Shown: positions 1,676-43,725, counted from the first letter of the stretch. The stretch: 48,589 bases of DNA from Candidatus Yanofskybacteria bacterium CG10_big_fil_rev_8_21_14_0_10_46_23 (GCA_002771135.1 PCXO01000012.1:21694-70282); one strand, 5' to 3'. Notes: generated by a model not told the origin, from the letters alone. Translations and numbers: made by a program.

Positions 1676-1830
1676 GGCCGGTCTCCTTTCTTTGAACTAT
1701 CTAATCTTAATTTTTTAAATATTAAATTCAACCCCAACTTATGAAGGTTTGACCCCGTCTTACTAAGGGGCTAGAATATTCCCAATAATCACCAATTGTT
1801 TGAACAAAATAATCATGATTGGTTTTAAGT

Positions 1831-2001
1831 ATGAAGGAATTAACTTGTATGTGCGGGCACAAGACTTCCGGCGAGGATCGTTATATGGTTGAAGCTCAGA
1901 TGTGGTATCACGCCATGAGCGAGCATCTTGAGATCATGAAAGACATGTCCGTTGAAGATATTGCCAAGTGGTTGAAAGACAAAGACGAGAAACTAGCCTA
2001 A
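1831..2001 (+). CDS. Small DUF1059-like putative metal-binding protein
   Basis: MKELTCMCGH...HAMSEH pattern; promoter TTGACC-17-TAGAAT at 1749-1777; ATG 1831 preferred. Confidence 0.65.
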   Translation: MKELTCMCGHKTSGEDRYMVEAQMWYHAMSEHLEIMKDMSVEDIAKWLKDKDEKLA

Positions 2002-3375: not shown

Positions 3376-3415
3376 CCAAAATCAAAGGCCCCCGCGCGGG
3401 GGCCTTTGATTTTGG
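3376..3415. terminator. Perfect 40-bp palindrome at the tmRNA 3' end
   Basis: CCAAAATCAAAGGCCCCCGC|GCGGGGGCCTTTGATTTTGG, overlapping the ssrA CCA. Confidence 0.75.
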
Positions 3416-3766
3416 TGGAGATGGTGGGAGTCGAACCCACGTGTAATAGGGCTATCAACGATGATCTACACGCTTAGTCATATCTGATTTCGACACAGCT
3501 AGGGATACGACACCATCACTGCGACGCTACTTTTTGTTTTTCAGCTCAGATTTGGAAAGCATTGGAAACAAATCGGAGATATAACTCGCTGATTGGCGCT
3601 CTGTTAGCGTAGTGAGTATCGGCTAGAGAGCGAAGAGTTAAGCGTAAGCTAACCCTTGGTTGTAGTTACTGTTTGCAACTAAAATTTTGAATCTTGTTTA
3701 AAGTGAGGGACTCTCTCACTGCGTGCCCATCTGTTAATTTGCTATTATCGAATCCGGGACATCCCC
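3413..3766 (-). ncRNA. ssrA: tmRNA; tag peptide ANSNYNQGLAYA* (3638-3676)
   Basis: 5' GGGGATG pairs with 3' CATCTCC-ACCA including a G3:U wobble; T-arm GTGGGTTCGACTCCCAC; resume codon GCA; adjacent to smpB. Confidence 0.96.
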
Positions 3767-25256: not shown

Positions 25257-25547
25257 CTATTCGTAGAAGCCGGCCTGATCGGCTCTTTCTTCGAGCCACT
25301 GCTTATGATCATCAGACCGCCTCTTCTCCAGGATTAGGTGATCAAAGACTTCTCGGTGGAACACAAGTTGCCCGATTTTGCGGAGGGCCTTCTCTTTCAG
25401 GCCCCATTGGAATATCAAGGCATCGTGGTTGCCATCTACCCTGCTCTTTAGGATGAGACGGCCAAGTATAACCAAGATTTCATCCGAGCCGGGTTCTCGG
25501 ATGTTTTCCTCTAGATTTTTCCAGATACTCTCTTTGGTTTCCGTCAT
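25257..25547 (-). CDS. Hypothetical protein
   Basis: AAGGAAGGAG SD; own TTTACA..TAAATT promoter. Confidence 0.65.
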   Translation of the reverse strand: MTETKESIWKNLEENIREPGSDEILVILGRLILKSRVDGNHDALIFQWGLKEKALRKIGQLVFHREVFDHLILEKRRSDDHKQWLEERADQAGFYE

Positions 25548-25616
25548 GTTAATGAGCTCCTTCCTTTAAAAATTTAAGCCATTTTTATTTATTTGTAAAC
25601 ATAATTTATAGAGTTC

Positions 25617-25651
25617 AAAACCACCCCGCCCCGCTATTTAGCGGGGCGGGG
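25617..25651 (-). terminator. Intrinsic terminator
   Basis: 12-bp stem CCCCGCCCCGCT/AGCGGGGCGGGG followed by TGGTTTT on the minus strand. Confidence 0.7.
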
Positions 25652-25700
25652 GGTAGATAAGAGTAAGGGGAGGTACAATATGTTACGGGGTGGAGTTTTA

Positions 25701-25757
25701 TCAGGTGTCCTCCGGCCCGGCCCGGATCAAGGGAATGTCGAACAAATAAGTTATCAT
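25701..25757 (-). CDS. Candidate 18-aa peptide MITYLFDIPLIRAGPEDT (putative arrest peptide)
   Basis: Manual translation; GTG-ATG starts 7-10 nt after an ECF-like -10; contains IRAGP. Confidence 0.45.
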   Translation of the reverse strand: MITYLFDIPLIRAGPEDT

Positions 25758-25764
25758 CACCCTC

Positions 25765-25824
25765 TAAGACGCAGATTCTTTGGCTGGGGTTTCGAGAAAC
25801 CTTTTCGGGGGTCTTTCCGTCTTA
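25765..25824. promoter_or_regulatory. Two divergent ECF-sigma-type promoters (GAAAC-N17-CGTCTTA on each strand)
   Basis: Plus strand: GAAAC 25796-25800 and CGTC 25818-25821. Minus strand: GAAAC 25793-25789 and CGTC 25771-25768. Directly upstream of an ECF sigma gene. Confidence 0.8.
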
Positions 25825-25891
25825 ATAAGCAATCGAGGTGTTTACCATTTTTATTTTTAGATGTTAAAATAGAAAGTAAATACACCGACTT

Positions 25892-26443
25892 ATGAACAAA
25901 GAAGCTATCCAATCTTTTCAATCGATTGTTGAACAATACGAGCGGAGGATTATAAATTTTCACTATCGTTTTGTCGGCAATCGTCAAGACGCGGAGGATT
26001 TGGCCCAAGAAACTTTCATAAAGGCTTATAAAAAGCTGGATACTTTAAAGGACAAGGCGAAATTAAGAAGCTGGCTTTTCCAGATTGCGCGTAACATTTC
26101 CATCGATCACTTTCGAAAACACAAAGACCGTGAGGTTGCCTTGGAAAATGAAGCGCTTCAGCATTTCGCCCAACTTGCTTTTGTTGATTATAAGACCCAA
26201 GAGACCCAAAATGCTCTGAAAGAGGAACTTGACGCTTGTCTAAAGCGTCTTAGTGACCAAGATCGCCGTATCATCAAGTTACTTTACTACGAGGGCTTTT
26301 CTTATAAGGAGATCAGCCAGACTCTGGGGATTAACCAGAATACCCTGAAGAGTCGGCTTCATCGAGTTCGCCAAGCCCTTTTAGCCGTGATAAGAAAAAA
26401 CGAATATATAAATGAGACTATTGCCCCAAATTATAGAGCCTAA
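25892..26443 (+). CDS. ECF RNA polymerase sigma-70 factor
   Basis: DAEDLAQETFIKAY, SWLFQIARN and SYKEISQTLGI..NTLKSRLHR motifs. Confidence 0.94.
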   Translation: MNKEAIQSFQSIVEQYERRIINFHYRFVGNRQDAEDLAQETFIKAYKKLDTLKDKAKLRSWLFQIARNISIDHFRKHKDREVALENEALQHFAQLAFVDYKTQETQNALKEELDACLKRLSDQDRRIIKLLYYEGFSYKEISQTLGINQNTLKSRLHRVRQALLAVIRKNEYINETIAPNYRA

Positions 26444-26858
26444 CCTCAACCCGGAAGCCAAGATTGATGCCTATATCCAATCTCGGATTCAAGAAATTGG
26501 TTGTTCTCACGGCGAGATTGAACCCTCGCTCCGTTTCGTTGAGAAAACGATGAGACGGGTTCAGCGGGTTCAACGCCAGCAGGATCTTCTGCGTGATTTT
26601 TATTTCGTCCTCTTGGCCTTGTTACCTTTTATCTTGTATCAAATTTGGATGAGCCTTCGCCGTGACTATTTCTCAGTTTCGGAGATGCCTTTTGGTCAGA
26701 TTATCTCTCAAATTTATGGCTATGCCTTGGCTCCGGTGGCAACCTTTGTAGTGTTTTCTCTCAGCCTGTTTTTAGTCATGGCTTATCTGATTAGAACCAA
26801 AGCTATCTTTGAGTCGGCTTTTATTCGACGCTTTCGTCGACATCCCGAAACTCTCTAA
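26412..26858 (+). CDS. Putative membrane anti-sigma factor
   Basis: Overlaps the sigma 3' end; PS..FVEKTM.RV motif followed by two TM segments. Confidence 0.6.
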   Translation: MRLLPQIIEPNLNPEAKIDAYIQSRIQEIGCSHGEIEPSLRFVEKTMRRVQRVQRQQDLLRDFYFVLLALLPFILYQIWMSLRRDYFSVSEMPFGQIISQIYGYALAPVATFVVFSLSLFLVMAYLIRTKAIFESAFIRRFRRHPETL

Positions 26859-41331: not shown

Positions 41332-41529
41332 GACTCCACTAAGTTATGTAGAATATTTCCAAGCCAATGAAATAGCGTGGTGTACCCGCCAGTGGATTTT
41401 ATGGATCTACTGGCGGTTACATTAGGAGATCCAACGTAGCCGTGTATTTTAAAAATTTGAACGTCCAATTTTTTGAACAGTTATAAAAAACAGTATCTTA
41501 CTTGATACTGTTATCCAGTCCTCCTTTTA

Positions 41530-41566
<37 letters not shown>

Positions 41567-41738
41567 TGTGGATAAGGCATGCAAGTCGAGCGAGTCCGCC
41601 TTCGGGCGAGACGAGCGGCAGACGAGTTAGTAACACCTTGGTACGTACCTCGAAGTCGGGCATAACTCCGCGAAAGCGGCGCTAATTCCCGATAGTCTGG
41701 CAACAGTAAAGTTTTTACGCTTCGAGAGCGGCCTAGGT

Positions 41739-41776
<38 letters not shown>

Positions 41777-42789
41777 GATGACGGGTAGGGGGTGTGAGAG
41801 CACGACCCCCAACGATGGCACTGAGACACGGGCCATACACCTACGGGTGGCCGCAGTCGAGAATATTCCGCAATGGGCGAAAGCCTGACGGAGCGACACC
41901 GCGTGCAGGAAGACGGCCTTAGGGTTGTAAACTGCTTTTTTCAGGGAAGAATTTTGACGGTACCTGACGAATAAGGGGCTGCTAACTTCGTGCCAGCAGC
42001 AGCGGTAATACGAAGGCCCCAAGCGTTATCCGGATTAACTGGGCGTAAAACGTGAGCAGCTGGTGATATTAGTCTGATGTTAAATCTTACCGCCCAACGG
42101 TAAGGCCGCATTGGAAACGGTATCACTTGAGTTGGTAAGAGGCATACAGAACGTGCGGTGTAGGGGTGAAATCCGTTGATATTGCACGGAATACCAAAAG
42201 CGAAGGCAGTATGCTGGTGCCAAACTGACGGTCAGTCACGAAAGCGTGGGGAGCGAATGGGATTAGATACCCCAGTAGTCCACGCTGTAAACGTTGCAGA
42301 CTCGCTATCGGGAGCATCGACCCTCTCGGTGGCCAAGCAAACGCGTTAAGTCTGCTGCCTGGGAAGTACGAGCGCAAGCTTAAAACTCAAAGGAATAGAC
42401 GGGGATTTGCACAAGCGGTGGATCATGTGGTTTAATTCGATTATAAGCGGAAAACCTCACCAAGGCTTGAAATCTAGCTGCAAGCTCTGAGAAACCAGAG
42501 CCGCCTTCGAGGGTGCTAGACAGGTGCTGCACGGTTGTCGTCAGCTCGTTCCGTGAGGAGTTCTCTTAAGTGAGGAAACGAGCGCAACCCCTATTGCGTG
42601 TTATACGTGTCACGCGAGACTGCCGAGGATAACTCGGAGGAAGGTGGGGATGACGTCAAATCAGCGTGGCCCTCTGATGCCTTGGGCTACACACATGATA
42701 CAATGGGTGGTACAACGGGTTGCCAAGTCGCGAGACGGAGCTAATCCTATCAAAGCCATCCTCAGTTCGGATTGGAGGCTGCAACTTGC

Positions 42790-42825
<36 letters not shown>

Positions 42826-42864
42826 TCACGCCGCGGTGAATACGTTCTCAAATCTTGTACTCAC

Positions 42865-43725
42865 AAATAAAAGCGCCCGGCCGCTTAATTTTCTAAGTGG
42901 TTAAAGTCCACTCCTCTATTACGTCAATAGAGCGTAGCTGAAGGATAGGCCCAAAACCGCGAGGTTGGGGCCGGAGGATCCGAAAGCAAAAGACAGCCTA
43001 ATTTTCTGTTAGTAAACAGAGGGATAATCGACTCATCGTTGGGTAGTGAGGATGAGGAAGGTTAGAAGTAATCCTATTAGGATGTCTAGAAGAGAAATTT
43101 AAGTAACCCGGGGAGATCTGATGCTGTCTCTTCTATGTTAAAATAGAAGAGTAATGTAACTTATGCAGCATCAGAAGTCAGCTGGTTCGTAGTAACCACA
43201 TTTATGTGGAGAAGGAACCTCCCCAATGTATGATTGACCCAAATTATATAGTCGGTCTGGTAGATGGAGAAGGAAGTTTCACCTCTTATGTGAGGGATCT
43301 CAAGCGATCCAAAGAGGTAAAAAGGAGAAATAGGATAGAGCCGAAGTTTTACCTCACTCTTATCGAGAGAGACAAAGAAATCCTGTATCGGCTAAAAAAA
43401 TATTTTGGGTGTGGAAATGTATATTTCCAAAAAGACTCTAGATTAAATCACCAGAATTGTTATCGATATGAAGTTGGGAGGAGAGAAGATCTTAATCAAA
43501 AGATTATTCCCTTCTTCAAGAAACATCGATTGAAATTGAAGTCAAAATCAAAGGACTTCTCACTTTTCTGCGAGATAATGAAGATGATCTCGAGAGGAGA
43601 ACATCTGGGAGATGAAGGTTTAGAGAAAATTCTAAAGATTAAGCAATCAATGCACTAGGGCTCGTCGTATGCGGGAAATCCGCAGGTACGATGGGGAAGC
43701 CTCTGTTGTGTTACCAACAAGCCTT
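42865..43725 (+). mobile_element. Group II-like intron (~861 nt) at ~E. coli 16S position 1399/1400
   Basis: Interrupts CTTGTACTCAC|TGCCCGTCA; domain V-like hairpin at 43661-43695; EBS1-like GTGAG (43046-43050) in a hairpin loop, complementary to the exon end CTCAC. Confidence 0.85.
43230..43658 (+). CDS. Intron-encoded single-motif LAGLIDADG homing endonuclease
   Basis: YIVGLVDGEGSF, LKKYFGCGNV and IIPFF...L..K..DF motifs. Confidence 0.93.
   Translation: MIDPNYIVGLVDGEGSFTSYVRDLKRSKEVKRRNRIEPKFYLTLIERDKEILYRLKKYFGCGNVYFQKDSRLNHQNCYRYEVGRREDLNQKIIPFFKKHRLKLKSKSKDFSLFCEIMKMISRGEHLGDEGLEKILKIKQSMH

Follow-up and report, generated by a model that had tools for sequence, protein, structure and literature searches.

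A putative orphan arrest peptide of the RAPP/RGPP class in a small RNA divergent from an ECF sigma gene of Patescibacteria

Arrest peptides with a RAPP or RGPP core have so far been understood as C-terminal modules of secreted or membrane proteins that monitor a process and regulate the next gene. ApdA, ApdP, ApcA, the RGPP/RAPP peptides of Streptomyces lividans and CruR of Bordetella, as portrayed in the reports compared here (PMC7897499, PMC10951233, PMC10987492, PMC12992588), are annotated proteins of typically 100-200 residues with a signal peptide or a membrane segment; they lie upstream of the regulated gene, and it takes translocation or a ligand to release the arrest. For SecM of E. 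coli the motif is given as F150xxxxWIxxxxGIRAGP166 (PMC12992588). An earlier note on a 48,589-nucleotide stretch of Candidatus Yanofskybacteria bacterium CG10_big_fil_rev_8_21_14_0_10_46_23 (PCXO01000012.1:21694-70282; this whole stretch is called the window below) had pointed to a micro open reading frame (micro-ORF) carrying the same last five residues, IRAGP, and we followed it up by comparison with orthologous loci. Our analysis suggests that it is an ultrashort, apparently leaderless, orphan micro-ORF of the RAPP/RGPP class in a small RNA that would be driven by the neighbouring extracytoplasmic function (ECF) sigma factor, and as such a new variation on RAPP arrest. We regard the core of this reading, a micro-ORF that is translated, conserved and of the arrest type, as probable, with considerable room left for doubt.

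The micro-ORF lies in a 344-bp gap with a 96-aa ORF on one side and the ECF sigma gene on the other. We recomputed its coordinates, strand and translation from the window and found them correct in the earlier note: the reverse complement of 25701-25760 reads GTG ATG ATA ... CGG GCC GGG CCG GAG GAC ACC TGA. The features needed first are the following.

25701..25760, minus strand: micro-ORF (V)MITYLFDIPLIRAGPEDT followed by a stop; GTG at 25760, ATG at 25757-25755, stop at 25703-25701; 18 codons
25713..25724, minus strand: R-A-G-P codons CGG GCC GGG CCG, inside the micro-ORF
25765..25792, minus strand: divergent ECF-type promoter; AAACC 25792..25788, 16 nt, CGTCTTA 25771..25765
25797..25824, plus strand: sigma-facing ECF-type promoter AAACC-N16-CGTCTTA, by pattern match
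25892..26443, plus strand: ECF (group 4) sigma factor gene, 183 aa, by Pfam domains

Like SecM, the window peptide ends its motif in IRAGP and runs on for a few codons to a stop, and the predicted register is the same, with Gly in the P site and Pro in the A site. Residues W155, I156 and G161 of SecM are Tyr, Leu and Leu in the window peptide, and the position of F150 falls before its start codon. Unlike SecM, the peptide has no signal sequence (18 residues in all, 14 at the predicted stall) and no Sec-dependent release, and secA, the gene whose ribosome-binding site SecM unmasks from immediately upstream, is not downstream; a terminator and then the 96-aa orphan gene follow instead. As the rest of the family described below carries mainly RGPP and not RAGP, and as the upstream residues of SecM, its signal peptide and secA are all missing, we dropped the label 'SecM-type' that the earlier note had used.

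Taken alone, the motif in the window is an ordinary coincidence and not above chance. In the six-frame translation of the 48.6 kb there are two copies of IRAGP, four of RAGP and eight of RA[GP]P, and the second IRAGP lies antisense inside leuS. The motif rises above chance because its class, its frame and its position relative to the promoter are kept across the orthologous divergent transcripts.

The motif and its reading frame in orthologous loci

The source genome (G000) comprises 571 kb in 13 contigs and is 95% complete. Contigs from four DNA runs showed zero differences where they cover the region and hence no within-species variation, and a look through the public runs found no RNA run with this DNA. 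Compared with 60 relatives, the intergenic DNA gave short matches only (best E = 4e-5 over 33 nt); this similarity is too short, so orthologous loci were traced via the sigma gene and synteny. Of 105 genomes of the order, 29 matched a sigma profile built from six orthologues (A1) at E <= 1e-40, among them 26 of 26 genomes in one family (f4), one of the eight other genomes in the window's own family and one of 62 in a third (f3). A metagenome scan supplied four more loci, and four from named genomes were identical to others already in the set. After removal of duplicates 33 unique loci were left, from records titled Patescibacteria, Parcubacteria or Paceibacterota. Throughout the orthologous loci the arrangement of leuS (plus strand) followed by the sigma gene and the anti-sigma-like gene is conserved.

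A sigma-facing match to [N]AAC[CT]-N15-17-CGTC was present in all 33 loci, and 24 of them have a second, divergent AAC-N15-17-CGTC promoter. The earlier note had proposed to look beside orthologous sigma genes for small ORFs with a RAGP/RAPP-class motif and synonymous variation, and we found such ORFs: R-[AGSD]-[PG]-P is present in the micro-ORFs of 20 of the 24 divergent transcripts, as RGPP in 15, RSPP in three, RDPP in one and RAGP in the window alone. Among these 20, the Arg and the last Pro are invariant. Examples of the RGPP form are MVIQIIHKRGPPR, MAQIIHKRGPPK, MILLDQRGPPS and VTNTLRGPPE, each directly followed by a stop codon. Frames +1 and +2 of the same transcripts contain the motif in 0 of 24 cases, and behind the sigma-facing promoters it occurs in 0 of 33, whether start-codon ORFs or any frame are considered. 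The 16 reference genomes that bear the motif span, together with the source genome, 10 genera.

The substitution pattern is that of a coding sequence. The Arg codons (CGG 4, CGC 6, CGT 3, AGA 5, AGG 2) come from both codon families, Gly is written with all four GGN codons, and the third base of the Pro codons (CCG, CCT, CCC or CCA) varies at both Pro positions. In an alignment of nine codons from 13 sequences, the pairwise differences summed to 2.47, 1.28 and 5.25 for the first, second and third codon position, respectively, and third-position wobble is seen in the A/U-rich N-terminal codons too, which lie outside any hairpin. Conservation is confined to the part that ends with the motif. Across the 20 loci, amino-acid identity was 0.55 through the motif vs 0.09 beyond it, and nucleotide identity 0.555 vs 0.295. 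From these patterns we conclude that the micro-ORF is, to judge by sequence comparison, translated and selected up to the last Pro and not beyond.

The family members are mostly 10-20 codons long and start with a hydrophobic consensus, M-x-I-Q-I-I-H-K. In 19 of the 20 micro-ORFs only 5-11 residues precede the Arg, leaving no room for a signal peptide or membrane segment, and the chain at the predicted stall would measure 8-11 residues in most loci, 14 in the window and 25 in L193. The motif sits near the C-terminus, with the stop codon no more than three residues past it in 12 of 20 micro-ORFs, and the C-terminal tails range from 1 to >10 residues. Two micro-ORFs, L110 (RDPP) and L112 (RSPP), have no in-frame stop before the terminator, so that the terminated RNA would be a non-stop message if the arrest were absent.

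A pattern combining promoter, ATG and RGPP matched in three of 401 sampled genomes of the class, namely two known members and one out-of-frame case, and its reversed control gave no match. With no new in-frame member among these genomes, the family looks confined to this lineage within the set searched.

The opposite strand also carries an ORF. A plus-strand ORF of 71 aa at 25680..25895 has a strong ribosome-binding site (AAGGGGAGGT, 6 nt, ATG), its stop overlaps the sigma start codon, and its codons are in register with those of the micro-ORF on the opposite strand. We considered it as the gene in place of the micro-ORF and rejected it, as nothing comparable is found in the 32 other loci; it is most likely an antisense shadow ORF.

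Promoters, hairpin and terminator of the RNA

Two copies of AAACC-N16-CGTCTTA stand back to back in the gap. A review of ECF sigma factors names as their hallmarks AAC in the -35 box, CGT in the -10 box, positive autoregulation and an anti-sigma gene on the same transcript (PMC8103513), and the sigma-facing copy is presumed to be the autoregulatory promoter of the sigma gene. The divergent copy would likewise depend on the neighbouring ECF sigma factor, as its sequence suggests. Genome-wide, the strict motif occurs six times vs 2.65 in shuffled sequences.

The divergent promoter predicts a transcription start at about 25762-25757. In the window the GTG begins 4 nt and the ATG 7 nt past the -10 box, which bears out the earlier note's view that GTG-ATG lies at the predicted transcription start: the start codon sits where an ECF-type promoter would begin the RNA. 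The same holds across the family, as each of the 24 divergent transcripts has its start codon at a distance of 5-9 nt downstream of CGTC(T/A)TA (5 nt in two, 6 nt in ten, 7 nt in five, 8 nt in five and 9 nt in two). We therefore predict that the micro-ORF is leaderless in the usual sense of a start codon no more than about 3 nt from the 5' end, the 5' end being itself a prediction.

Two further strict promoter matches were seen in the source genome. One is at about 1735-1762 of the window, plus strand, upstream of a 60-aa ORF at 1819..2001; the other lies on contig C1 of the same genome near 3989, minus strand, and the roughly 55 nt that follow it close with a terminator-like hairpin and contain no ORF. 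Both are candidates for membership in the regulon. Upstream of the micro-ORF promoter, the minus strand at 25804-25823 holds a 20-nt stretch of which 19 bases are matched in many relatives, inside bacterial large-subunit rRNA genes in the two loci checked. The stretch is the reverse complement of the spacer and -10 box of the sigma-facing promoter and is not kept in the orthologous loci; the rRNA-like match is probably due to chance. In the metagenome locus L109 a second ECF-type promoter lies about 230 nt upstream of the sigma gene, in tandem with it and not divergent. It precedes a C-rich RNA with a long split terminator, and the C-rich 3' part of this RNA resembles that of the window.

The predicted window RNA is about 140 nt long, and terminated family RNAs range from about 85 to 210 nt. 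Downstream of the motif the window RNA contains three elements.

25686..25719, minus strand: hairpin, by folding; 5' arm 25719..25710, 3' arm C-rich, CUCCACCCCG
25663..25676, minus strand: C-rich, anti-Shine-Dalgarno-like tract GUACCUCCCCUUAC, upstream of the terminator
25616..25651, minus strand: intrinsic terminator; stem 25651..25624 with 12 bp, of which 11 are G-C pairs, and a 4-nt loop, then TGGTTTTG

The 5' arm of the hairpin lies within the stretch that would be covered by a ribosome stalled at RAG|P. An equivalent hairpin, in which at least 4 bp have their 5' partner at nt 0 to +15 counted from the first base of the predicted P-site codon, is found in 18 of the 20 motif-bearing loci, whose mean fold z-score against shuffles is -1.7. 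Covariation was assessed in six of the 20 sequences, picked for one common hairpin geometry. In this subset all 43 of 43 cells pair, and three of eight pairs are compensatory, those with the third base of either Pro codon among them; covariation scores 0.417 vs 0.103 in shuffles (reached by 0 of 500), and controls with a slid partner stay at or below 0.05. Since the 3' arm makes up for synonymous substitutions in the Pro codons, coding and structure are both under constraint. The earlier note had warned that a GC-rich mini-hairpin over the RAGP codons might make the match coincidental. This worry is not borne out, as the hairpin itself is conserved and its pairing partners change together with synonymous substitutions in the Pro codons, and it is on this comparative evidence best read as part of the device and not as the source of a spurious match.

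Between hairpin and terminator the RNA is variable across the family. For a tract related to that of the window, AACACCUCC, 9 of 24 transcripts have a match with no more than one mismatch, and 16 of 24 if two mismatches are allowed. Rfam gave no matching family for the intergenic region (E up to 1) and none at its gathering score for 14 orthologous loci, so the RNA does not belong to a known RNA family.

The overlap of codons and helix brings up an alternative in which the G+C-rich codons would be kept for the hairpin alone and the reading frame would be fortuitous. The R-G-P-P codons do form part of the 5' arm of a conserved hairpin, an ACCUC tract is the pairing partner of the Arg-Gly codons in one subgroup, and L109 has the 3' part of the RNA without the ORF. 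Yet the Arg survives switches between CGN and AGR codons, N-terminal codons wobble outside the hairpin, the motif appears in a single frame that is in phase with a start codon 5-9 nt from the -10 box, and hairpin sequences vary between loci while the peptide stays constant. We consider it very improbable that the RNA structure alone explains the pattern.

The arrest reading and its rivals

In the reported mutagenesis of ApcA, ApdA and ApdP the Arg is irreplaceable, replacement of Ala by Gly is fully permissive or enhancing, and Ser, Asp and Pro are partly permissive for RAPP arrest (PMC12992588). The same report names RGPP as the most robust form, states that RAGP, the form of SecM, can support arrest, and describes a stall in which the P site is occupied by the third codon of the motif and the A site by the fourth (PMC12992588). 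An earlier screen by the same group lists RGPP, RSPP and TGPP among the motifs of candidate arrest ORFs (PMC10987492). The substitutions in our family, with G most often, then S and D, and A-G-P once, are exactly the published arrest-permissive set. By analogy with RAPP peptides and SecM, the register in the window would assign the P site to Gly (25718-25716) and the A site to Pro (25715-25713).

The micro-ORF family thus shares with the RAPP-like peptides the R-(A/G)-P-P core with its invariant Arg and A-site Pro, the tolerance at position 2 for G and then for S and D, a motif near the C-terminus, a hairpin adjoining the stall site, and a sequence N-terminal to the motif that is conserved within each family only. 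Unlike these peptides, it consists of 10-20 codons without a targeting signal, is apparently leaderless behind an ECF-type promoter, and has its own terminator and no conserved downstream gene.

On the arrest reading, an ECF-sigma-type promoter, adjacent to the autoregulatory promoter of the sigma/anti-sigma operon and pointing away from it, would drive a small terminated RNA with a micro-ORF at its 5' end that is translated without a leader. After a hydrophobic N-terminus, R-G-P-P (or RSPP, RDPP, RAGP) would act as an intrinsic arrest core of the RAPP class, with a P-site tRNA that carries Arg and the two residues after it and a Pro-tRNA in the A site that is unable to accept the chain. Release by force, as in SecM, would not take place since the chain is too short to reach the translocon; indeed, a chain of 8-11 residues (14 in the window) cannot leave the tunnel, which excludes release by a pulling force. 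Stalling at the micro-ORF is suggested by these parallels with described arrest peptides. A plain Pro-Pro pause would normally be relieved, as the source genome encodes EF-P: a full-length gene was found with TIGR00038 (177.9 bits, just under the cut-off) and PF08207, and Pfam PF01132 gave no match in this genome. The RAPP arrests of ApdA and ApdP are reported not to be rescued by EF-P (PMC12992588). RAPP-like motifs are also reported to be avoided in proteomes, those of Patescibacteria included (PMC12992588). In the long ORFs of the source genome six R-type motifs occurred 0 times vs about 7 expected, and six control motifs twice vs about 8.8, so this count does not discriminate.

Selection on the amino-acid sequence fits any peptide function and not arrest alone, and an N-terminal I-H-K is conserved too. 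The product could thus be a free peptide of 10-20 residues, for example a partner of the sigma or anti-sigma factor, in which R-x-P-P would serve binding or structure and the pause would be incidental. For a mature peptide it would be odd that two ORFs reach the terminator without a stop, that conservation ends exactly at the second Pro, and that the tails vary from 1 to >10 residues. The residues at position 2 (G, S, D, A) are moreover the arrest-permissive set, and the reported avoidance of RAPP-like motifs in proteomes, Patescibacteria included (PMC12992588), speaks against this reading. We think that a free peptide is a poor candidate for the product.

Several observations weigh against the arrest reading. 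Four of the 24 micro-ORFs lack the motif and read RRGSR, ..SRDQP.. (two loci) and ..TGPP.. instead, and nine of the 33 loci lack the divergent element altogether. In these nine, no R-x-P-P micro-ORF was found at an ECF-type promoter up to 1.4 kb upstream of the sigma gene, and three stray motif matches (L201, L207) have no promoter. The 33 loci are from related species, so that the counts are not independent events. L109, with 60% identity the sigma orthologue closest to that of the window, has no leaderless ORF. The published arrests were measured on long-chain fusions, and residues N-terminal to RAPP are reported to modulate or abolish stalling (PMC10951233). The N-terminus of the window peptide, MITYLFDIPLI, departs from the consensus, and its Arg is residue 12 and not 6-9. 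RAGP, the form in the window, is the weaker core, and ApdP-RAGP is reported to yield mostly full-length product in the E. coli PURE system (PMC12992588). As to the remainder of the RNA, the AACACCUCC tract is not universal, with only 9 of 24 transcripts keeping it well, no convincing anti-terminator pairing was seen by eye in the folds, and predicted duplexes between the RNAs and the sigma leaders were on average about as stable for cognate as for non-cognate pairs (mean -24.8 vs -24.06 kcal/mol, permutation p = 0.16).

Some of these points bear on the window copy more than on the family. The window copy is the most divergent member and may arrest weakly or not at all. One may go further and hold that the family is real and the window copy decayed or non-arresting, its identity with IRAGP of SecM being coincidental. 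It has the sole RAGP among the 20 motifs, the N-terminus and Arg position are off the consensus, IRAGP and RAGP arise by chance elsewhere in the window, and L109, the nearest orthologue, has lost the ORF; RAGP is described as context-dependent in published assays (PMC12992588). Set against this, promoter, start position, open frame, Arg, A-site Pro, the hairpin over the stall site and the terminator are all kept in the window, and RAGP is reported to support arrest in vivo in the contexts of SecM, ApcA and ApdP (PMC12992588). A decayed window copy strikes us as rather unlikely, though somewhat less so than a free peptide. Of the earlier note's central claim, the arrest-class motif has withstood the comparison across orthologous loci, and the SecM label and the idea of readthrough control, to which we turn below, have not.

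Outputs, neighbouring genes and other observations

We wondered what a ribosome stalled on such an RNA might do. The note had correctly seen a terminator after the micro-ORF and a separate promoter for the next gene: both matches are present, the latter a sigma-70-like TTTACA-17-TAAATT at 25599..25571 ahead of the 96-aa gene. It had suggested control of readthrough into the gene starting at 25547. This is unlikely, as the 96-aa gene is found in this genome only; at nearly all other loci the transcript runs toward the 3' end of a convergent leuS and ends at its own terminator, and across the orthologous loci no conserved downstream gene follows the micro-ORF RNA. Attenuation or readthrough into this gene was rejected, since the gene has no homologue in the eight other genomes of the family and is missing at the other loci, and no convincing anti-terminator pairing was seen by eye. 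The note's further ideas, that a stalled ribosome might stabilise or expose the 3' part of the RNA or that ribosomes might be sequestered, are conjectural outputs of the arrest reading. A small RNA targeting its own sigma leader was rejected likewise, as the RNA shows no excess complementarity to the cognate leader (p = 0.16).

More speculatively, a stalled 70S ribosome would hold the 5' arm of the hairpin, so that its 3' arm and the C-rich tract ahead of the terminator become free, and would shield the 5' end of the RNA. The output would then be a translation-gated, stress-induced riboregulator. For this we note that L109 keeps the C-rich 3' part and the terminator without the ORF and that 9 of 24 transcripts have AACACCUCC with no more than one mismatch; it is the output that we prefer, but our confidence in it is low. 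Any particular output is in our view much less probable than the core reading.

Precedents exist for parts of such a device. In short leader peptides of the erm and cat type very short chains stall, and in erm the ribosome on one hairpin arm alters the fold downstream. The 14-residue PepNL, as described (PMC11890864), likewise has a very short nascent chain at the stall, as is predicted here. In erm/cat leaders and PepNL, however, the stall needs a drug or occurs at a stop codon and controls a downstream ORF, and no such ORF is present here. MicA, RybB and MicL are small RNAs that depend on ECF/sigma-E factors. Like these and like FoxJ of Fusobacterium as reported (PMC11005410), the RNA of our family is small, terminated and linked to an envelope-stress-type sigma factor. 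Its C-rich single-stranded tract could pair with ribosome-binding sites as in small RNAs of the sigma-E type. The sigma-E-type RNAs and FoxJ are non-coding and have known targets, whereas here a conserved ORF fills the 5' third and the sigma leaders compared yielded no target. In mycobacteria leaderless short regulatory ORFs are known, such as the polycysteine attenuators, which sense amino-acid supply and attenuate a downstream operon. These resemble the micro-ORF family in being 5'-end ORFs that act via the progress of the ribosome, and differ in being without a RAPP-type core.

The stalled ribosome might also be all there is. The micro-ORF may be an orphan arrest peptide, that is, a sigma-induced leaderless RNA whose sole translated product is a ribosome stalled at about 10 residues, with no regulated gene downstream; we hold this to be a possibility on the unlikely side. 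Ultra-small groundwater bacteria reportedly have only a few dozen ribosomes per cell. As the main alternative, the trapped ribosome itself could be the output, with the RNA removing 70S ribosomes or peptidyl-tRNA and so throttling translation in envelope stress, and with hairpin and terminator merely defining and stabilising the RNA. ORF, hairpin and terminator are indeed the only family-wide parts (the C-rich tract being well kept in 9 of 24), there is no conserved downstream gene, the sigma leaders tested yielded no cognate target, and the chain is too short for force-dependent release; the reported failure of EF-P to rescue ApdA and ApdP (PMC12992588) fits as well. On the other hand, one RNA traps one ribosome, so that a large effect requires very strong transcription, the 3' part of the RNA is kept without the ORF in L109, which argues for a role of its own, and we found no precedent in the literature searched. 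We judge such a ribosome trap to be similarly doubtful.

In a literature search by title and abstract, we found no description of a sigma-driven leaderless RGPP-type arrest small RNA. In the main text of two papers from the Chiba group, the word 'leaderless' is absent and 'Patescibacteria' occurs only in a figure legend on proteome depletion. Micro-ORFs this small never appear in predicted proteomes, and published screens based on proteomes are therefore blind to the family. A device cut to about 10 codons raises the questions of how short a nascent chain may be and still arrest the ribosome, and of what roles a stalled ribosome may have beyond unmasking a neighbouring start site. If the orphan reading is true, this would be programmed arrest outside the leader-peptide logic and the first such case in the candidate phyla radiation, and the stalled ribosome would be either a stress-triggered brake on translation in ribosome-poor cells or a switch that arms the rest of the RNA. 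The family would offer a first handle on post-transcriptional regulation and on the ECF regulon in uncultivated ultra-small Patescibacteria.

In the window leuS lies upstream of this region, and the sigma gene (Sigma70_r2, 9.1e-21; Sigma70_r4_2, 1.1e-16; Sigma70_ECF, 2.4e-9) is followed by an overlapping gene and then folD. Two neighbouring genes complete the locus.

26412..26858, plus strand: 148-aa gene overlapping the end of the sigma gene, with hydrophobic stretches; presumed anti-sigma factor
25257..25547, minus strand: 96-aa ORF with a good ribosome-binding site and its own promoter match

The 148-aa gene has no Pfam match; its hydrophobic stretches suggest a membrane protein, and it is presumed from position only to encode the anti-sigma factor. 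It is kept beside the sigma gene: of the 32 other unique loci, 30 show a tblastn match to it downstream of that gene. The 96-aa ORF belongs to no Pfam family, has no homologue in the eight other genomes of the window's family and is absent from the other orthologous sigma loci examined; it looks like an orphan gene inserted between leuS and the small RNA.

Three observations concern other RNA genes. The 16S rRNA gene at 41525-42917 spans the full Rfam model in only 1393 nt, and the 5.6 kb of the window that remain after it contain no 23S gene. The window also has a gene for tmRNA, at 3413-3766, with the tag ANSNYNQGLAYA. In a relative (locus L012, contig C1 of G012), three tandem group I introns lie at 248-872 inside the 23S rRNA gene.

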